In this document: piece after piece, positions 1,243-40,612 of the stretch
Position numbering within the stretch: the first letter of the stretch is position 1
Layout: each line of letters begins with the position of its first letter
Sequence record: MT446393.1
Strand: one strand, 5' to 3'
From: Escherichia virus TH16
DNA length: 40,612 nucleotides
Translations under genes and position numbers: made by a program
The notes under the pieces: generated by a model
What the model saw: the letters and a program-made list of their open reading frames with translations, nothing else
Databases searched by the model: none
What the model was told of the DNA's origin: nothing

Positions 1243-3924
1243 TTAAGCGAATGCAAAGTCTGAAGACAAGATGTCTTCGATATTCAGTTTACCTTTCTTC
1301 GGAAGCTCAGGCAACTTGTCGCGCTGACTCTCGTGAAGCTGGTATTCGAACTGCTCGTAGAAGTCCAGCAGCACATCGTTGTCGCGGTAGGTCTCGACCA
1401 TCGTCTCACGGACTCCACGGAACAGATACTCAGCGTCAGCCGGGATGGTCCCGAAGCTATCGTGAATCACTGCGAATGACACCACGCCATACTTGCGGTG
1501 CGTGTGGACTACAGTCTTGCGGAGGTGGCTACCATCTTGTGAGTGGACGAAGTTCGGGCTAATGCCTGACTCCTGCTTGTGCTTGTCCAGCTCTTTCTTC
1601 GTGCCTTTGTTGACTGTAGGCTGAAGGTTGAATGACCCTAAGAACATCAGGTTCAAACGTGTGGTATCCTTCTTGCGGTATTCCTGCCAGACCGGGAAAC
1701 CATCAGGTGTGACCCAGTGTACCGGAAGGCAAGGCTTCAGGATTTCGCCAGTCTTCTTGTCCTTCACTTCAGCAGCCAGCAGCTTGGCAGCGCCTTGAAG
1801 CCACTTCATCGCGTCTACCGCAGCAACTACGGTCACACTCACAGCCTCCCAGATCATCTTAGCCATGAAGCGAGACGCTTGGCTTGGCTCAGTGAACATA
1901 GCGCCAGACCCTGAGTCAATCGCTGGCATCACGATGTCCTCGTAAACTTGGTCTGCGAAGCCGTACTCTTTCGACCCGTAGGCCAGAGTCATGACTGAAC
2001 GCTTAGTGACCTTGCGTGACATACCGTAGGTCAGCCACTGACGGGCCAGCTCGCGTGTCCCCAGCTTGATACGCTCGGTAATCTCACCAGTTTTCTTGTC
2101 CTCGTGAGTCACCATCTCGTTGTCCGTACCGTTAACCAGCAGGACTTTAAGCTCCTCCTCAATTCGATCAGACACGATGCGGTAGATGTCTTGAACCTTA
2201 CCGGATGGCGTTAGGTTTACTGCATGTCCACCGATGTGGTCACGAAGCATCGCGCTGAAGTGCTGAATCCCAGAGCAGGACCCATCGAACGCTATCGGCA
2301 GCGAGCAGGAGTAAGACAGGCCGTGGTGCATTACGCCAGCATACTCGAAGCAGAACGCGAGGAAGCAGAACGGAGAGTCTACCTTACCCCACCACTCAAT
2401 GCTGTCCATCGGTGCCTTAGCAGCAGCCATGATGTTAGCGTGGTTGTCTTCCACCCACTTGATGCGCTCCTCGAAGGTGACTTTATCGACACCCGCACAG
2501 TTTGCACCGTGGACCTTCAGCCATTTAAAACCATCAGCACCAATAGGCTTGCCGACTGCCAGAGTCAGGAGACCCTTCTGCATGTCGTTACCCTGAGGGT
2601 TGAACATCGGTACAGCGTAGACGCGACCCCGCCAATCCATGTTGTATGGAAACCAGATGGCCTTGAACTGAGAGAACTTGTTCGCTTGGTTGACGATAAA
2701 GCTCAGTGACAATCTGCGTGACTGTCTGGCCTTCTCGCGGCGATAGATACCAGCAGCAGCCTTCTTCCATGCCTTGAGTTCTTCTTCAGTCTCACCCGCA
2801 TAGTCCTCAGGCTTCAGTGGTTCCATCTGAGGGATGTCATCAATAGGCGTGTTGTTCAGCTTCTCGACCATGTTCACCACGTCCAGAACCTTCTTGTTAA
2901 CTTTCCAAGGTGTATTCTGGATGATGTTCACAGCGTCATAGACTTCAGGCATGTACACGTCTTCGTAACGTGCTGCCGCAGACTTGGAACCTAAGCGAAT
3001 CAGCGGCAATGGTCTGCGACCTTTGGCCCAATACCCACCTCCTACGACACCAGTCCACGGCTTAGGTGGAACTACGCAAGGTTGATAGACTGGCGCGATA
3101 CCCGCAAGGCTGAAGCCACGTTGTGCCATCTTCTTGACCCAGAATTCTGACAGGTGGACCATCTCTACATCAGCCGCTGCATTGCCAGCACCATAACGCT
3201 TAAGCTCGACCAATTGTGTTGACTGGATGACAATCTCAAGCATCTTGATGCCAACGTGTACCGCCTCGGTAGGACTCCAAGTCCCCCACGCATCTTCCAG
3301 TTGACCTTGCTCCAGCATGGAGGCCTCAACCGCTTGCATGTAGGCTTTCTTGTAGGATGCCCCGGCTCGCTTGTTCAGGTTCTCAGCTATCGCCTTTTTG
3401 AAGTGCTCCTTCTCCTGATCACGGATTCGACCGAAGCGGATTTCATCCTCAAGTGTGCGACCTATCGCGGAGGCCATCGGTGTAATCGGTATCCCTTCAG
3501 GCTTGACCAGCTTGGAGAGAATGACCTTCAGTATGATAACCGCAGCAGACTCACAGGAGATGCGCATAGAGCGGTCCTTGACGGCCTTCTCTTCAGTGCT
3601 CAACATGGTGAACGCTACGCTAGGACGAGAGGTTGACAGCTTCCCGTCTTGACCTTCATGCCACTCCTTTACGGCTTGCGCAATCTTAGGGACCAGAGTC
3701 TGCATCAAAGGTTTGGCGACCTGATTGTCTGCCAGTTCCCCGCGCTCAGTCTGTCGCTCAAGGTTCTTGATGAAACGTCGCTCGCCTTCAGTGTATGCCT
3801 CATGCTCAAGCTGAAGCTGTTTGACTGCAAGGTCCTGCCCGTAGTGGTCAGCCAGCAGGTTAAACGGCTCAATGGCGTTTGACACATCAGAGAAGTCGTG
3901 TTTGTCAATAGAGATGACGCTCAT
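1243..3924 (-). CDS. gp1: Single-subunit DNA-dependent RNA polymerase (893 aa)
   Basis: Clear similarity to T7/T3 RNAP along the whole length (e.g. FPYNMDWRGRVYAV, ESGISPNFVHSQDGSHLRKTVV, C-terminal FAFA). Confidence 0.97.
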   Translation of the reverse strand: MSVISIDKHDFSDVSNAIEPFNLLADHYGQDLAVKQLQLEHEAYTEGERRFIKNLERQTERGELADNQVAKPLMQTLVPKIAQAVKEWHEGQDGKLSTSRPSVAFTMLSTEEKAVKDRSMRISCESAAVIILKVILSKLVKPEGIPITPMASAIGRTLEDEIRFGRIRDQEKEHFKKAIAENLNKRAGASYKKAYMQAVEASMLEQGQLEDAWGTWSPTEAVHVGIKMLEIVIQSTQLVELKRYGAGNAAADVEMVHLSEFWVKKMAQRGFSLAGIAPVYQPCVVPPKPWTGVVGGGYWAKGRRPLPLIRLGSKSAAARYEDVYMPEVYDAVNIIQNTPWKVNKKVLDVVNMVEKLNNTPIDDIPQMEPLKPEDYAGETEEELKAWKKAAAGIYRREKARQSRRLSLSFIVNQANKFSQFKAIWFPYNMDWRGRVYAVPMFNPQGNDMQKGLLTLAVGKPIGADGFKWLKVHGANCAGVDKVTFEERIKWVEDNHANIMAAAKAPMDSIEWWGKVDSPFCFLAFCFEYAGVMHHGLSYSCSLPIAFDGSCSGIQHFSAMLRDHIGGHAVNLTPSGKVQDIYRIVSDRIEEELKVLLVNGTDNEMVTHEDKKTGEITERIKLGTRELARQWLTYGMSRKVTKRSVMTLAYGSKEYGFADQVYEDIVMPAIDSGSGAMFTEPSQASRFMAKMIWEAVSVTVVAAVDAMKWLQGAAKLLAAEVKDKKTGEILKPCLPVHWVTPDGFPVWQEYRKKDTTRLNLMFLGSFNLQPTVNKGTKKELDKHKQESGISPNFVHSQDGSHLRKTVVHTHRKYGVVSFAVIHDSFGTIPADAEYLFRGVRETMVETYRDNDVLLDFYEQFEYQLHESQRDKLPELPKKGKLNIEDILSSDFAFA

Positions 3925-4632: not shown

Positions 4633-4782
4633 TCACTCAGCGTGTAAGCTGTCGTGAATACGTTTGCGGCTACCGTAGACCACTTTCAATAGACGCATAG
4701 CCGCATCGTGGTTTAACCGCCCGGTCTTGACCAAAATCCGGGCGTTGGTGACGTGGTGCTGGCAGAGACCATAAGTTACCAT
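4633..4782 (-). CDS. Hypothetical early protein (49 aa from the internal ATG)
   Basis: Track ORF 4633..4827 begins with TTG; ATG at 4782 has a GAGG-type RBS. Confidence 0.4.
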   Translation of the reverse strand: MVTYGLCQHHVTNARILVKTGRLNHDAAMRLLKVVYGSRKRIHDSLHAE

Positions 4783-5300
4783 CTTGATGGCCTCACCTCT
4801 TGCAGCTTGGACACAAGGAAGAAGCAATCCACCAGTATCAACTTGCCATTCACGGCCCGTACATTGCGTGGGCTTATCTCAAACTGAATGTCAGACCCAA
4901 AGTTAGCGCAAGCATCCAGCGCCATCAGTACATCCATCAGACCTTCCCGCACAGTCTCAGTCTCAGACCTGTCGTGTGCAGCTTGGAATATCTCGTACCA
5001 CTTGTGATACAGGTCAGCAGGTCGAGAGAATCTCGGAGACCGTGAGAAGCAATCGCGCAGCACCTGATAGAGTTGCCACTGGTCATCATCTAAATGCGCC
5101 TTGAGTCCTCGTGTTGGTGGCATGTGGTCCATCTCATACGTGCCAACCTCAATCATCTTGACTTCAGGGAACAGTGGAGACTCAGGGAACCATCCCCATG
5201 CCATACACTCCTTTATTGGGTCAGAAGAGACCAGAAGTACACGCTTCCCGCAATCCTTCAGGTAGCACTTAGTGAACGCGCCTTTGCCTATCAGTTTCAT
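4776..5300 (-). CDS. gp0.7: gp0.7-like protein kinase, short form (174 aa) without the long C-terminal region of T7 gp0.7
   Basis: GKGAF glycine-rich segment and weak similarity to the remembered T7 gp0.7 kinase region; position before gene 1. Confidence 0.45.
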   Translation of the reverse strand: MKLIGKGAFTKCYLKDCGKRVLLVSSDPIKECMAWGWFPESPLFPEVKMIEVGTYEMDHMPPTRGLKAHLDDDQWQLYQVLRDCFSRSPRFSRPADLYHKWYEIFQAAHDRSETETVREGLMDVLMALDACANFGSDIQFEISPRNVRAVNGKLILVDCFFLVSKLQEVRPSRW

Positions 5301-5316
5301 GTTGTTATTCCTTGCG

Positions 5317-5505
5317 TTAGAATGGATTAGACCATGTGCTGTACTGGTGGTTGGAAATCATGCCAGACTTGCAGAGACTGTCTGTATAGTCATTCCAATA
5401 CTGCTGTTTAGCTATGTCGTCGCCTCTGAAAGTCTCAGGGAACTCGCGGAAAGTCTCACGACATTCAGCTATCACTTCCGCTTTGGTCATCTTACGATAC
5501 GCCAT
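5317..5505 (-). CDS. Hypothetical early protein (62 aa), second gene of the early operon
   Basis: ATG start with AGGA upstream; preceded by the conserved leader element. Confidence 0.5.
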   Translation of the reverse strand: MAYRKMTKAEVIAECRETFREFPETFRGDDIAKQQYWNDYTDSLCKSGMISNHQYSTWSNPF

Positions 5506-5513
5506 CTTGTTTA

Positions 5514-5573
5514 TCCTATAGTTAGTGACTATCAGTCAGGCCGCTATGAGTCTAACGACCTGTAGTTAATCAC
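5514..5573. repeat. Copy 1 of a ~60-bp duplicated early leader element (contains TGACT-ATC-AGTCA inverted repeat)
   Basis: 21 bp identical to 5764..5784 plus flanking similarity to 5755..5822. Confidence 0.6.
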
Positions 5574-5746
5574 TGGCAATTGAACGCGTGGTCCAGGCAC
5601 ATATTGAACTCTTCCTGCGCAAGCTCGCGGCTATCCCACTCAGTCTTAGACAATCCGTAGATTATCACATGCTTAGTGTGATTCTTACAGTCTTTAGCCG
5701 TATACCAGATTAAGCCAAGATCTTCGTTCATCGCTATGATTTTCAT
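5570..5746 (-). CDS. Hypothetical first early protein (58 aa) in the position of T7 gene 0.3; not in the ORF track
   Basis: ATG with AGGAG RBS; translation MKIIAMNEDLGLIWYTAKDCKNHTKHVIIYGLSKTEWDSRELAQEEFNMCLDHAFNCQ. Confidence 0.5.
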   Translation of the reverse strand: MKIIAMNEDLGLIWYTAKDCKNHTKHVIIYGLSKTEWDSRELAQEEFNMCLDHAFNCQ

Positions 5747-5754
5747 AATGTTAC

Positions 5755-5822
5755 TCCTACTTAAGTTAGTGACTATCAGTCAGGGCCTTCAGATGTAGAC
5801 TCAAAGACCCTGTAGTTAGTCG
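5755..5822. repeat. Copy 2 of the duplicated early leader element
   Basis: See 5514..5573. Confidence 0.6.
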
Positions 5823-5929
5823 CTATCGGCGCACATTAAGAGTTTATCCAGATTGTTAAAGAGCATTCCCTTCAGTCATATGACTTCAGGTAGACCATTT
5901 CAGTGTCGGTCATCACCGTTGTTTCGATG

Positions 5930-5966
5930 TGGTACATACTACTTTAAGTCGTTACTGCTTGTCAAC
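5930..5966 (-). promoter_or_regulatory. Host sigma70-type early promoter (T7 A3-like)
   Basis: Minus-strand TTGACA, 18-nt spacer, TAGTAT; flanks resemble the remembered T7 A2/A3 region. Confidence 0.5.
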
Positions 5967-6064
5967 CACTTTCTGTCATCTGCCTGTTGTTCGTATGACT
6001 TATCAGGCTGTCTACTTGACCGGGATGACCCGGCGTCTTCACTATCCGGTTGTTGCCGTGTCGT

Positions 6065-6107
6065 GTTGACGGAAGTTATTTAGCCATAGTCTAGACCTAT
6101 AGTCAAT
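6065..6107 (-). promoter_or_regulatory. Candidate host sigma70 promoter (T7 A1-like)
   Basis: Minus-strand TTGACT, 17-nt spacer, CTAAAT. Confidence 0.3.
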
Positions 6108-6329
6108 AGGTAATTTGAAATAATATTGATTAAGCTATCGTCGGCCCCATAGTGACTAAGAGGATATAGTCTTTGACTAACATGTATTAGACCTTAAGTC
6201 TATATCTTTGTGTCTATTAACTGTAGGTCTGTGACTGTAAGCTGTGAGTGTCTTATGGTTGTGACTGTAGGTTAGTGAGACTGTAGGTGTATGACGTAAT
6301 GTTATACTATAACACTATACAGATAGAGA

Positions 6330-6502
6330 CTCAGAGACAGACCCATAGTCCCAACCTATCGTCCAACCTCCAGCCATAGCCACTACCTATCGTCGACCTA
6401 ACGTCTTGACCATCGGTCCAACCCTATGATAGACTGGGGTAGGGCCTTTGGTCTGACTTAAAGAGGGCCTATGGGGAGACTTTAGGTTCTTGAACTGTGA
6501 GA
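6330..6502. repeat. Collapsed terminal-repeat region; physical genome left end near 6502 on the minus strand
   Basis: Minus strand from 6502 reads TCTCACAGTTCAAGAACCTAAAGTCTCCCCATAGG..., resembling remembered T7/T3 left ends; repeat extent is an estimate. Confidence 0.45.
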
Positions 6503-6739
6503 TGTGGTCTCAAACTTTTGGTCCAAAACTCATCGTCACTACTGTAGGCCTAAGCCACTGTAGGTCAAGGACCGTAGGTCAGGCGACACTAGGATAGACC
6601 AATAAGTAGGATGACCCTAAGTGAGCTTCTATTAAGGTGTTACCTAAAGTCCTTGACTACAGTAGCTAAGGTCAGTAGAGTAGCGTCAGCTATGAACTGA
6701 CCTTAGGTCTTACGCTCATGAATAGTTACCATGATTGCG

Positions 6740-6898
6740 TTAATTACACTGAGAGACCAGAGAACATACGAGAGTCTCGACCCACCCGACCCACTGACTT
6801 CCAGCAGTAACGCCAGCAGCAAGTAGAACAGCAGCAAGAAACCTGTATGTAGCTCGATTGGTCGCCAGAGCTTTAAGTACAGCTTTGGTCTTTGCCAT
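6740..6898 (-). CDS. gp19.5: gp19.5-like small hydrophobic protein (52 aa), not in the ORF track
   Basis: AGGAGG RBS; position after terminase; translation MAKTKAVLKALATNRATYRFLAAVLLAAGVTAGSQWVGWVETLVCSLVSQCN. Confidence 0.45.
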   Translation of the reverse strand: MAKTKAVLKALATNRATYRFLAAVLLAAGVTAGSQWVGWVETLVCSLVSQCN

Positions 6899-7078
6899 AT
6901 GCTACATACCTCCTGTATCTATGGTCGGTGACTATCTGTATTGGAGGGATTATGATTAATATCACCCTCCTTCCATCGGTGCAAGCCTTAGGTAAGAACT
7001 CGGAGTCTGCCTCCTAAGGTCTTGCATAAAGTCTGCATATGTATATTCACTACAGTAATACTATAAGTAACCGGGGGT

Positions 7079-7101
7079 CTTCCCTATAGTGATAGTTAAG
7101 T
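7079..7101 (-). promoter_or_regulatory. Phage RNAP promoter downstream of terminase, reading toward the genome end (phiOR-like)
   Basis: Minus-strand CTTAACTATCACTATAGGGAAGA. Confidence 0.6.
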
Positions 7102-7195
7102 CCAAACTTCTTGTAAAACAGTAGGTTAGACTGGTAGTAACTATAGGTTACTAACTGCGTATTCATGCAGCTTTCACCTATAGTTATTCATTCAG

Positions 7196-8962
7196 CTAGT
7201 GGAGCGTAACGTATGACCCTAGTCCAAGCTCGTCGTCCGTATCGTTAGTTACCCGGACCCCATTGTCCCAGAACTCAGTGTGGATGGACTCGAAGCCTTT
7301 CCGTGGGTTCTCCATCTGTTCCTCCAGCCACTCCTCAGTGACTTCACGTTCGCCTTTGTTGGCATCCTTCGCCATAGACTCAACGAAGAACTGTACACCG
7401 ATAGCCAGCGCATCAAGTCGGTCATCGTGTGCCAAGGCTCCACGCTCACGAGAGATACGGGTCATCTGGTAGAAGAGAGAGTAGATAGGGTTACGAACAC
7501 CGTCCTTATCAGAGGCCGACTGGTAGTCTTGGACGATAGCAGCAGCGTTAACGATAAGTCGGTGAGACCCCATGATAGGCTCCAGAACGTCACAGATGCG
7601 GAGTTCTTTCTGACCCTTACTCTTCACTTCAGTTACAGCAGCAGGATGGATACGGGCCGCTACAGGCTTGAATAACTCAAGGTACATACCATCACCGAAG
7701 TTACCCTCAATGACGTATTCGTTTACCTTCCACTTACGACCAATCTTAGCCAAGGCTTCTAGCGTAGAGTCCTCATAACCACCACGCATACCTCCAACTT
7801 CCATAGCGAAGATGTAGCCGTTGAGCTGATACAGTACCGCATAGCCAGTTTCATCCTTACCACGACCACTAGGGTCAATGACCAGAATCTTCTGGGTGTA
7901 CGAACTGAAGGCAGAACCTACAGTCTGATACGTGTGGTATGAGTCACCCATGAGTCCAACGTTAGGAACGTCCTCACGCTTGTTCTGAGGGTTTGGCAAC
8001 CATTGGTAGACCATTGGGCTGGACGCTGGGTCCAAGTCCGCTACGATAAGGTCACGGAGCTTCAGAGGGTACTTCTCAGCATCACTCAGGTTCGGGTTAA
8101 GCATGAACTGCAGAGCGAAGCCAGCTTTACCATAGGACAGCTCACGTTCCTTCAGGTCCGTATCATCGAATCGTACCTCATCGGTCGGACGCCAGTAGAA
8201 GGGCTCAGGGTCCTCTTCAAGCTCTGCCTGAAGCATCGGTGCCAGACGGTCGCCGTAAGACTGCCAGTCCTTCCTGTCGCGTGGATAACGAGCCGGCCAG
8301 ATAGTAGTGGTATATCCACGGCCTTCAAGCTCACGATACAGGGTCATCTCGTTCTGAGGAGTACCCAGATAGATGATTGTGCCTCCAGGCTTCAGGATAG
8401 CGTCGAACTCTTTAACAAGCTCTGACAGACGGTCTCGTGCAGCCTGAGTCGCTGAGTTGTTAGGAACCTCCACGTCATCTGCAATCAGGATGTCAGCACG
8501 ACTACCAGTCAACTGACCAGTGATACCAACGGACTTAACCGAAGGTGAGTGGTCTGGCTTGGCTGGCCCAACGTCGAAGCTGATAACCGCATCTCGCTGT
8601 CTCTGCTTAGGTTTGAGTTCCTGAAGCTGAGGCATGAGGTCGATGATTCGCTTGATGAAGATGGAGTTAGCATCTGCTCGTTCCTTTGAGGCCGACACAA
8701 TCATGAACTTCAAGTCTGGGTTGTTCCATAGTTTCCAGACCACGAAACCACAGGTCAGAAACGACTTGCCAATACCACGGAACGCCTGAAGGATGAAGCG
8801 GCGATTATCCCCAGCAGCCAGCTTCTTACACATATCTATCTGGCAGCGGGTTGGAACCGGAAGGCTAAGAGCTTTCCAGAGAACGAAGATGAAGAACACG
8901 AAGTCGTCCCTCATCCTTTGGGTCATTTCTGCCTGTCTTTCAGCGGGTGTTTTCTTAGACAT
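7196..8962 (-). CDS. gp19: Terminase large subunit / DNA maturase B (588 aa)
   Basis: Length and sequence similar to T7 gp19; ATG start and TAG stop checked. Confidence 0.95.
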
Positions 8963-9929: not shown

Positions 9930-10193
9930 TTATTGCACTCCATATCCAGTGTCATTATCTTCCGTAGCGGAGAGCACCTTATCGTACTCTGCGTTCAGTG
10001 CCTCCATATCAGCGAGCGTCTTCTCGTCAACAGACACCTTGCTTAGCACGAAGTTGTGACGAGCCAGTAGCTTCTCAATGGCGTTGTAAAGCTGAGGTGA
10101 ACGCTTAGTGTCATCCCGCAGGTCTTGCAGCATGAGTCGAGCACGTTCAGTATCTAGCATTAAGAGGAACTTCTCTAAGTCCATCTGCGTCAT
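9930..10193 (-). CDS. gp18: Terminase small subunit / DNA packaging protein A (87 aa)
   Basis: Similarity to T7 gp18 (LMLDTERARLMLQDL...SPQLYNAIEKLL). Confidence 0.8.
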   Translation of the reverse strand: MTQMDLEKFLLMLDTERARLMLQDLRDDTKRSPQLYNAIEKLLARHNFVLSKVSVDEKTLADMEALNAEYDKVLSATEDNDTGYGVQ

Positions 10194-10489: not shown

Positions 10490-13051
10490 TTAAATGGTTT
10501 TTACTTCCCATCGACGGTCATAATAGTGGCTGAATCCACAATACGTTAAAGTCATATGGACAACCGCCATTGACATAGAAGCAGTCGCGGTATCAACACG
10601 AATAAACGTTTTACCGCCCGCCACCATTTTACTTACGGTAATCCCATCAAGAGATTTATCCCCGGCATCCTTATTCGACCATAGAACACCAGAGGCTACG
10701 TTTGCTTCTGTTGACCCAGAAATACTAAACAATAACCGACCTCCTGCTTCGGTGCCCCTCAGCCCATTCTTATTTACGGGTATGATAGACATCTCCCCCG
10801 CCAGAAAGCACCCACCTTCAAATCTGCTTTCTTCTCCAACAGCGGTAAGAAGGATATCTACACAACGGTTCCACGGTAGGATGAACGACGCTGTCTCAGT
10901 TCGTACTTGTCTGAAATACGCTTCGCTGTTAACCGCTGCGGATGACATAAGCACCCCGTTATATGAATTTGCACCTTCAAGTGGCGCAGACCCGTAAACC
11001 CTGCCTCCGACGGATGAGCTTTTTACAAGTGTGTTAGAGTAGACAGCAGTGCCATCGGTGAGTTTGATGAATCTGAACATTTCGCCAAAATAGAACGAGT
11101 TACCGTATGCACCAACGTTAAGGCCGTCCACCTTATTTATCAATTGGATAGTATAATCGGATTTTACATACCCGGAATCCAATACAATACTACCTTTAGG
11201 CATGCGTGATTCATTCTTCGGCGGGGTTATAAATCTCAATACCCCAGTATTCATAGACGACTGAATCCAACACGACACGTTGCGAAACACGACTTTATAG
11301 GTATCGTCAGTTCCTTCGTATGCGGAAAAGTCTAACGCATCGACGCCGTTTATACCCTCTATCCCTAAACCATCGATCTCCAAGCTGCGGATATTACCCA
11401 TAAAAGAGTGAGGCTTGATACACCCGTCAGCAGCGATATTCGTCGATTTTATGTACACAATGGGTGCGCCTGATGCGGGCACTTCAGGGGCATATGTAGT
11501 ACGGTTAATCGCTGCGCCCCATAAATAGCCGTAGTCGCAGTGGTGCGCCCATATCGCTCTCATATCCAGCGAGGTGGAACCGGATACCGCAAAGCCATAG
11601 GTGCAATCGTAAGCATAAAGATTGCTGACAGTGCTTACGAAAGCAGCATTAGGGAACGCGAATTTGTAGTGATAGAACTCGACGTTATTTATGTCAAACA
11701 GCTTGCCTCCACCACCGTTTGTCCCGGGATCACTTATCAGTAAAGGGCACCCGGAATACGCGCTATCTGCGTTACGAAACGCGATGTTATTTACGTGCGG
11801 ATTGTGCGCCCATAGGGTTGAAATAAACCCGCCTTTCCCTGACGTGTAAATAATGCTCTGTCGTGGTTTGACTCCTCGTAAGTCTAAACTCTTGCCAGCC
11901 CATCTGTTTAAGCTAATATCAATCTGGGTGGTACCTATGTAGATTGGCTGTTCGATTAATAAAGGAATATTGTGCGCAATACTTGCGGTATACGCAGCCA
12001 GCATCGCGGCCCCGTCGTTATGGGTTCCGGAAAGGTCGGCAGCCCCCATGCTTGGCGCTTTAGGATATGGAGTTCCCTGAATGGTGCTGCCGTCGATATA
12101 TGGAGCATCCATCCATGCGCCAAACATTTTAGGGGTAATTCCCCGAACGTTTGATAAGTCCCTTTTCCAGCGCTTACCTCCACTAGTAATTATAACAACG
12201 CCATTATCATCATTAGTTGTGGAATCTGCTAAGTCCGCATAGAACCACCCACCACCAGAATCACCAGACTCATTGGGTGTAATTGATGTTGTATGTTTTT
12301 CTACAAAAATGCGCTGGCCATCAACATCAGGTTCAATAGTTCTTAATGTTGATATATCATCGCATTTGCCGATTAACTTAAATCCATCGCTTTTATTTAA
12401 TTGACTCCTTAATGAAGCATCACCAACACTAACCCACGCACCTAGTCCAATCCCACCGGAAGTTTCAGGAGTTGAACCAGCAGGAACGTTCTTTGGAAGC
12501 GTACCATCCCAGCGGTAATAATCACCATCCTCTTCCCATAGCAGGACCTCGTTCCATGTTGTAACGTTGAAGCCTTTCTCGAAGGAGCGACGGGTAATAT
12601 AGCCAATTCGACCAGCTTCCTTGATACTCGCAGCGATTCCTCGTGCTTCGTCCTCGCTATCCTTAGCGTTGCCAGCAGAGGTACCAGCAGCATCGGCATA
12701 TTCCTTCGCTAAGTCAACCGTTTGGTCTCGACCTTCTTCTGCAATATGGATAGCCTGAAGCTCTGCATTGGTCAGGTCACTAGCTGTCAACACTGAGCCA
12801 TTCCTGAAGTCTACCACTAAGTCAGTTCCAGTCTGACGGTGAATACGAACGATGTCGAAACCTGATTGGTCAACCAACATCTCAATCATCGTTGGATTAA
12901 GGAATCGGTAATCTCGACCAACTTCCAGTACACGGTTCATGGTAGGGTTAGAGCTATTCACCAGCGTAACAACAACAAACGTTCTGGCTAGGTAGTCGAA
13001 CTCAATCCTGTACTGAGTGTTTCCTGAAGGGAATTGTGTAATAGTGGACAT
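10490..13051 (-). CDS. gp17: Tail fibre / tailspike (853 aa): T7 gp17-like N-terminal adaptor with a large unrelated C-terminal region
   Basis: N-terminal ~150 aa align with T7 gp17 ([28 protein letters not shown]); the rest is Gly/Ser/Thr-rich and not T7-like. Confidence 0.9.
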
Positions 13052-39377: not shown

Positions 39378-40338
39378 CTGGTGTCTCCTCCATGTAGGTG
39401 ATTTGACAAGCCCACCCATTGTAGTAATCAGGGTCTGACTTAACGTTATCTGTGAACTCGGACATAAGGGCGCGACTAATGTTAGTTGCGGAGACCTCCA
39501 TCCCGTTCTCAAGCATCACGTCAAATCCGATGACCATGCCCTCGTTGGCTAGGCCATCCGTACCCCACACAGGGCGCACAACATGACCGTCTGCCTCTTC
39601 GCTCGGCTTCATCTTCCACATGCCAGACTTCTTGCCACGCTTCCAGCGTCCAAGAGGGTCTTTAACTACCAGACCTTCTTGCCCATCTGCGCGCTTCTCT
39701 TCGTACAAATCCTGAAGAGACTCAAGGTCGTACACTGTATGACTCTCAGATAATACCCAGTCGATTTCCGGGAAGTATTTCTGGAGGAGAGGGACGATAG
39801 CTTCGGCCTTCAGGCGAGTGACGCTATGGATAGGGCCTTCGGCTTTCGGGTCGGTGATGACGTTAAGGTCCACGATACCGTAGACGACCACCTTGATATG
39901 GGCTCGGTCCAGCCTGAACTGAGTAGTCTTGGACTTGAGGTCCCAATCGCCATCGTGGAAGTCGTAGTTTTTAGACTTGACATACTTCGTGCGAATGAGA
40001 CCTGAAGACGTATTGAAGTCCACTCCTTTTACCATGACCTCGCCATCAATCATCAGGCCAGTGCCTTCGTATCCAGCCTGCTTCAGGAACCACAGCCAGT
40101 CGCTAGACTCGGTCTCCCAGAGGTCCTCTCGAGAAGTGTCCAGCCAGCTCAGGGCCGGAAGTGACTTAGACTCACGGCTCAACCATTGGGTCTCACCAGT
40201 AGGGAAGACCGGGAGGTTCAACCGGACACCATCGTACTTCACTTCAGCTTCCAGCGACCCAGCAGCTTCCAGAGCCTTCTTAACGCCAGACTCAGAGTAA
40301 TCTACAGCGCGGTGCGGGTTAGTTTTAATAGTTGTCAT
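39307..40338 (-). CDS. gp1.3: ATP-dependent DNA ligase (343 aa from the ATG); its 5' part is duplicated at 1..394
   Basis: KYDGVR adenylation motif and strong similarity to T7 ligase (MKPSEEADG, DGSLRHPSF..RGTEDNP); GGAG RBS before the ATG at 40338. Confidence 0.95.
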   Translation of the reverse strand: MTTIKTNPHRAVDYSESGVKKALEAAGSLEAEVKYDGVRLNLPVFPTGETQWLSRESKSLPALSWLDTSREDLWETESSDWLWFLKQAGYEGTGLMIDGEVMVKGVDFNTSSGLIRTKYVKSKNYDFHDGDWDLKSKTTQFRLDRAHIKVVVYGIVDLNVITDPKAEGPIHSVTRLKAEAIVPLLQKYFPEIDWVLSESHTVYDLESLQDLYEEKRADGQEGLVVKDPLGRWKRGKKSGMWKMKPSEEADGHVVRPVWGTDGLANEGMVIGFDVMLENGMEVSATNISRALMSEFTDNVKSDPDYYNGWACQITYMEETPDGSLRHPSFYQWRGTEDNPTVKI

Positions 40339-40612
40339 TGTGTTATCTCCATGTGTCGAGTTGGTTAGCGAGACAGTTAAGGAAGCCTGTGGCAGTGTTG
40401 TACAGTACGTCTTCATCGCGGTGTGCGAAGATCTTAAGCGCGAAGATGTTACCAGCTCGGTCCTCGACTTGAAGTCTCATGAACTCTTTCCGAAGATGCG
40501 CCTCGTACCAGTCCTGCTGTATCACGCAGAAGTCTAACTGATATAGTCGGTTACACGCTGCTTTGAAAGCGTTTAGGTTGCCACTGTAAAGTCTGCCCAT
40601 AGCGTTATGCTC

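Follow-up and report, generated by a model that had tools for sequence, protein, structure and literature searches.

Homology with K1F and EcoDS1 places the terminal repeat of the T7-family phage Escherichia virus TH16 within an assembled junction

In the sequence records of the phages T7, T3 and K1F the genome ends are exact duplications of 160 bp, 231 bp and 178 bp respectively, all starting with TCTCA(C/T)AG. The duplications of T7 and T3 close with ...GTGTCCCT directly before ATCTGTT and that of K1F with ...GAGTCTC(T) before ATCTGTAT, and the length of the K1F repeat is also given as 179 bp (PMC4925675). In EcoDS1 positions 1-178 are annotated as the terminal repeat and positions 177-184 as a 'concatemeric junction'. 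In concatemers a single repeat lies between genomes and the second copy is synthesised during maturation; collapse of the repeat and linearisation in mid-genome are documented as assembly behaviour for T7-like phages (PMC10438801). The T7 junction contains the class II signal ATCTGTT (bioRxiv 10.1101/2021.01.11.426313; 10.64898/2026.02.12.705533), and the bioRxiv work on this signal reports that any base change in it abolishes termination by the T7 polymerase. A model of pausing followed by recruitment is described in a passage of PMC3276506 that cites Zhang & Studier 2004. The Kayfunavirus records used here as references are those with repeats annotated or exactly duplicated at both ends.

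The stretch of DNA analysed, from here on referred to as the window, is the 40,612 nt of record MT446393.1 (Escherichia virus TH16), in which all long ORFs are carried on the minus strand. A local blastn revealed that positions 1-668 are identical to positions 39945-40612 (668/668), and the unit genome is 39,944 bp. This overlap falls within gene 1.2 (dGTPase inhibitor) and the start of the ligase gene, both of which are single-copy and internal in relatives, and through the overlap of the contig ends the ORF at 399-656 is duplicated as 40343-40600. Since the exact overlap lies within internal single-copy genes, the window is a reverse-complemented, circularly permuted contig of slightly more than unit length from a Kayfunavirus (K1F-like, T7 family). 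The identity of the two window ends over 668 bp is formally repeat-like and could also be read as a long direct terminal repeat, with the ends of the contig being the real genome ends, but this is extremely unlikely given the position of the segment within coding genes that are internal elsewhere; furthermore, none of the T7-family records examined has its genome ends at this segment, relatives with defined ends start with TCTCACAG, and an end overlap of this kind is what circularised assemblies usually show.

A search with the 1.45-kb stretch around the junction matched 379 phage records, the best of them (93-94% identity, 99% query cover) being Kayfunavirus phages of Escherichia, Salmonella, Citrobacter and other hosts, and a 25-kb query gave 92-94% identity over 82-86% with Kayfunavirus-type records, which places the phage within Kayfunavirus. 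As in the T7 group, a T7-type gp18/gp19 terminase and a single-subunit RNA polymerase are encoded in the same genome (Table 1), and a holin of the T7 family is present in the window. The tail-spike gene (10490-13051, 853 aa) starts with a T7 tail-fibre N-terminal adaptor, after which comes a TSP1/Gp66-type Tail_spike_N domain. No endosialidase Pfam match was found in the 853-aa tail spike and the receptor specificity of this phage is therefore probably different from that of K1F.

Table 1. Positions of the junction features and of the T7-type transcription and packaging genes in the window.
Feature	Position	Strand	Basis and details
Single-subunit RNA polymerase	1243-3924	-	PF00940 with PF14700
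Second host early promoter, equivalent of T7 A2	5927-5965	-	Aligns with EcoDS1 'host RNAP promoter' 609-647; consensus scan TTGACA-18-TAGTAT, 10/12
First host (sigma-70) early promoter, equivalent of T7 A1	6070-6106	-	Aligns with EcoDS1 'host RNAP promoter' 469-505; TTGACT-17-CTAAAT
Downstream heptamer array	6221-6287	-	CCTACAG 6287-6281, 6271-6265 and 6227-6221; CCATAAG 6258-6252; CTTACAG 6241-6235; T7 'SRR' position, right of repeat
ATCTGTA, positional homologue of the T7/T3 class II pause signal ATCTGTT ('CJ')	6318-6324	-	Directly after repeat
Terminal repeat, single copy, 178 bp	6325-6502	-	TCTCACAGTTCAAG ... CTGAGTCTCT; homology with K1F, EcoDS1, T7 and T3
Conserved block before the mature left end	6503-6535	-	CGATGAGTTTTGGACCAAAAGTTTGAGACCACA; near-invariant in 22 Kayfunavirus junctions
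Upstream heptamer array	6542-6578	-	CCTACGG 6578-6572; CCTACAG 6564-6558 and 6548-6542; T7 'SRL' position, left of repeat
Imperfect inverted repeat	6549-6672	.	Arms of ~31 nt (6642-6672, 6549-6579), 62-nt spacer
Gene 19.5, 52 aa, last gene before right end	6740-6898	-	100% identical to EcoDS1 gp19.5; phrog_2193, 6e-25
phiOR phage RNA-polymerase promoter, pointing to the junction	7079-7101	-	23 nt identical to annotated EcoDS1 phiOR
Large terminase, T7-type	7196-8962	-	PF22530, 6e-38, T7-specific nuclease domain
Small terminase, T7-type	9930-10193	-	PF11123

The region 6200-6620 is very probably the head-to-tail, concatemer-type junction of this K1F-like phage, with its two direct terminal repeats collapsed into one by the assembler and the circle opened elsewhere. 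The reverse complement of 6468-6502 is exactly TCTCACAGTTCAAGAACCTAAAGTCTCCCCATAGG, a string that agrees with the first nucleotides of T7 in 29 of 35 positions, with those of T3, which start with TCTCATAGTTCAAGAACC, in 31 of 38 aligned columns and with those of both K1F and EcoDS1 in 34 of 35. The first-pass annotation had pointed to a resemblance between the minus strand from 6502 and the left ends of T7 and T3; this resemblance is real, but the closest model is K1F/EcoDS1 instead. On the coding strand the repeat opens with TCTCACAG... at 6502 and closes with ...CTGAGTCTCT at 6325. Both strings occur only once in the whole window and the terminal repeat is thus present once, as had been proposed, the single copy being what distinguishes the window from K1F and EcoDS1 and a result of the assembly. 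The view of the locus as a T7-like genome terminus within an assembled junction was likewise borne out, by the homology of the boundaries, by the order of genes and by the 668-bp contig overlap, since a permuted contig of more than unit length with such an overlap is what gives a junction with a collapsed repeat.

When the window was aligned with the T7 and T3 termini, a check that had been set beforehand, both repeat boundaries coincided. At the left boundary the start TCTCA(C/T)AG is conserved as in the T7 group, and at the right boundary the window reads CTGAGTCTCT followed by ATCTGTATA, in agreement with the ending ...TC(T/C)CT and then ATCTGT that is common to T7, T3, K1F, EcoDS1 and all 28 K1F-type junctions examined. 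In T3 the end is ...GTGTCCCT followed by ATCTGTTAG, and in K1F and EcoDS1 it is ...GAGTCTCT followed by ATCTGTAT. The sequence of the window past the right boundary (...CTGAGTCTCT and then ATCTGTATAG) matches the boundaries in T7, T3 and K1F, and the homologous repeat is on these grounds 6502 to 6325, or 178 bp. Over its whole length this segment aligns with positions 1-178/179 of K1F, EcoDS1, Penshu1 and EPr2, and both the terminal repeat and the 'concatemeric junction' annotated in EcoDS1 map onto the window. The identity over the 178-bp repeat is 92.2% with EcoDS1, 91.1% with K1F and 89.4% with EPr2, while it is 61% overall with the 160-bp repeat of T7 and 60% with the 231-bp repeat of T3.

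From these alignments the mature ends are predicted at 6502 (left) and at 6325 (right; range 6321-6326), a refinement by homology of the first-pass estimate of a far boundary near 6330, which was right as an approximate place and five bases off. Penshu1 and EPr2 have 179-bp repeats (PhageTerm-type calls) which start as in the window and, for EPr2, also stop at the same place. A scan of IMG/VR for the exact pattern found 31 stretches, and seven of the contigs carry the motif at position 1-3 and a second time at 179-196 nt from the opposite end; among these seven, four end exactly at ...GAGTC(T/C)CT and have the repeat at both ends. The right boundary does, however, vary between records, by +4 nt in SH3, +1 nt in CR44b and -1 nt in K1F. 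For SH3, a related phage, the ends were read from virion DNA by run-off Sanger sequencing (PMC4925675), and the SH3 record aligns with the window from its position 1 but has an annotated repeat of 184 bp, ending with ...GAGTCTCTATCT and extending 4 nt beyond 6325, while the repeat of CR44b ends with ...CTCTA. These two records would fit a right-hand cut a few bases further on, at an SH3-like ...CTCTATCT (6321 in the window), and a repeat of 182 bp rather than 178 bp. We consider this improbable, as T7, T3, EcoDS1, EPr2 and the four two-copy IMG/VR contigs all stop exactly before ATCTGT and the SH3 paper itself gives 183 bp with a non-templated A discounted (PMC4925675), which shows that an uncertainty of a few bases is inherent to run-off Sanger sequencing.

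For EPr2 only the repeat sequence was used as reference and the layout of the record was left out. This record (OM256482.1, Providencia phage EPr2, L001/L002 among our loci) contains the 179-bp repeat at 1-179, 501-679, 40583-40761 and 41083-41261, the first and the last copies apparently being pasted onto rearranged flanks as an artefact of record construction.

Closure of the assembly on itself would also be expected from headful packaging of circularly permuted DNA, with the TCTCACAG block being a relic of homology and no end at all. That the phage packages in this way is most improbable, since the small terminase is of T7-type and the large terminase has a T7-specific nuclease domain, conservation with phages of measured fixed ends is 90-100% for all flanks of the cut sites, for the heptamer arrays and for the signal at the junction (PMC4925675), and an assembly likewise closes into a circle when its short repeats are collapsed (PMC10438801).

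Compared with K1F and EcoDS1 the repeat has ~8-9% substitutions, situated in its middle, which is the most variable part and is found in two alternative versions among relatives. The repeat contains, at 6343-6394, an imperfect tandem duplication of 31 nt, which reads GACGATAGGT...CTATGG on the coding strand, and in one IMG/VR relative (L041) extra copies of this duplication give a repeat of 231 bp.

The repeat is flanked on both sides by short heptamer arrays (Table 1), as in the T7 group. Arrays of CTGTAGG(T) had been noted in the first pass at 6221..6290 and 6541..6580, and five exact copies, starting on the plus strand at 6221, 6265, 6281, 6542 and 6558, together with degenerate copies were found there, which makes three copies on the upstream side of the repeat and four to five on its downstream side, with a local density ~40 times that of the genome. 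At the same-strand rate of the remaining genome 0.13 exact copies would be expected in 421 nt, where five were found (Poisson P ~3e-7). The arrays occupy the same two positions as those of T7, where the exact heptamer CCTAAAG is found twice before the right repeat (39671 and 39700) and eight times after the left repeat (175-332); T3 has flanking CCTAAAG heptamers as well. In the window, as in K1F and EcoDS1, the heptamer is instead CCTACAG on both sides, and K1F has two copies (39465 and 39481) at the position of the upstream array. The number of downstream copies differs among relatives and is lower in the window than in some of them.

A genome-wide excess of CCTACAG (26 against 6.1 from a dinucleotide-shuffle null) was also seen but was rejected as a codon or composition effect outside the junction. 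With the junction masked, an order-5 Markov model gave 8.8 expected against 12 seen on the coding strand and 9.5 against 9 on the other strand, and many unrelated 7-mers are similarly in excess over low-order models. As the order-5 model accounts for the counts outside the junction, the local cluster alone is meaningful among the occurrences of CCTACAG. When one mismatch was allowed, part of the excess of hits consisted of the reverse complement of the promoter core ACTATAGG.

Directly after the repeat the window carries ATCTGTA, at the place where T7 (CCCT followed by ATCTGTTAC) and T3 carry their signal. The placement is that of a class II signal: it is preceded by T, one of the bases (A, C or T) expected there, and it borders the repeat on the right in the direction of transcription from phiOR, which lies upstream on the same coding strand, but the strict heptamer ATCTGTT is not present at the junction of the window, which departs from it by one base, the seventh. 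The same ATCTGTA was found in 28 of 28 K1F-type junctions, including that of the window, while the T7 and T3 types have ATCTGTT (loci L001-L045). In view of this departure from the strict T7 signal, ATCTGTA is a putative pause site for the polymerase of this phage. Together with the heptamer CCTACAG it makes up a mild and lineage-wide departure from T7.

The T7 order of phiOR, gene 19.5, heptamers, repeat, pause signal, heptamers and host promoters, with homologous boundaries of the repeat, is thus retained in the window, and the junction is located, as in the T7 group, between gene 19/19.5 and the host promoters with the first early gene. On the upstream side both phiOR and gene 19.5 have identical counterparts in EcoDS1; the minus strand has nine promoters of the form CT(A/T)AaCTATCACTATAGG, phiOR among them. 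The block CGATGAGTTTTGGACCAAAAGTTTGAGACCACA, which is shared with K1F and EcoDS1 before the left cut, ends with ...GAGACCACA and contains a 13-nt palindrome, TTTTGGACCAAAA (6516-6528), and its counterpart stands before the right-hand copy of the repeat in K1F.

At 47-170 nt before the mature left end there is in addition an imperfect inverted repeat, the right arm of which is made up of the upstream heptamers. When folded as single-stranded DNA it gave -28.4 kcal/mol (z = -2.78), a value that was equalled or bettered by 3 out of 200 shuffles, while the analogues in T7 and T3 are weak (z = -1.8 and -1.3). Among 22 Kayfunavirus junctions the arms are nearly invariant and the spacer is found in several versions; no compensatory pairs were detected in these 22 junctions, as the arms are too invariant to show them.

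On the early side, the first two host promoters are the same as in EcoDS1 (Table 1), and the first early ORF (5746) comes after a segment with 100% identity to EcoDS1. The third host promoter annotated in EcoDS1 is missing: at 5869-5934, 66 unrelated bases replace the 219 bp of EcoDS1 that carry it, and with this segment replaced the number of strong early host promoters seems to be two and not three. T7 has phiOL and three major host promoters, while the window has two mapped host promoters and no convincing phiOL. A phiOL candidate, CACTATGGGG at 6154, was rejected as it fits the promoter core but, by eye, only ~1/8 of the upstream specificity positions, and its counterpart in EcoDS1, a phage with no annotated phiOL, is degraded further.

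For the first early ORFs (4776-5746; 58, 62 and 174 aa) the only matches were with PHROG families of unknown function, and searches of them for Pfam, Ocr and SAM-hydrolase matches found none; relatives have Ocr or SAM-hydrolase annotated as the first gene. Searches around the junction revealed no known RNA families in 5400-7400 at E <= 1 and no intrinsic terminators in 5500-7300.

The observation made in the first pass is thus confirmed and its interpretation supported, the virion ends of this particular phage being proposed from homology with its relatives. On the coding strand the virion DNA would begin at 6502 (TCTCACAG...) and end at 6325 (...CTGAGTCTCT), and the packaged molecule would have the 178 bp at both ends and a total length of ~40,122 bp. 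By analogy with T7 and T3, replication would lead to concatemers with one repeat between genomes, and the phage RNA polymerase, starting from phiOR and the late promoters, would cross gene 19.5 and the repeat and pause at the signal just past it. The gp18/gp19 terminase, with the prohead, would be recruited at this pause, cuts would be made at both boundaries of the repeat, and re-synthesis of the repeat would result in two copies per packaged genome. The flanking heptamer arrays and the upstream inverted repeat would then be putative accessory cis elements.

A hairpin intermediate was reportedly proposed in the processing of T7 concatemers by Chung, Nardone & Hinkle in 1990, and the conserved upstream inverted repeat could, by analogy, play the part of such an intermediate. 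It is conceivable, though on balance we doubt it, that the Kayfunavirus polymerases have co-evolved another class II pause specificity or that pausing is dispensed with, and that the inverted repeat is at the same time the hairpin or priming element by which the terminal repeat is duplicated.

The junction element as such is already known, being an ordinary Kayfunavirus terminal repeat and concatemer junction of the kind annotated in EcoDS1 and K1F, and the use of its identification in the window is mainly one of book-keeping: the predicted biological start lies at 6502 (minus strand), and one unit comes to 39,944 bp, a length that rises to about 40,122 bp once the second repeat is counted. 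For the annotator this means re-orienting the genome, restoring the missing copy of the repeat and trimming the 668-bp overlap artefact. The sole biological addition beyond the annotation of EcoDS1 and K1F is that the heptamer and the pause-signal homologue show their one-base changes uniformly across the K1F lineage.
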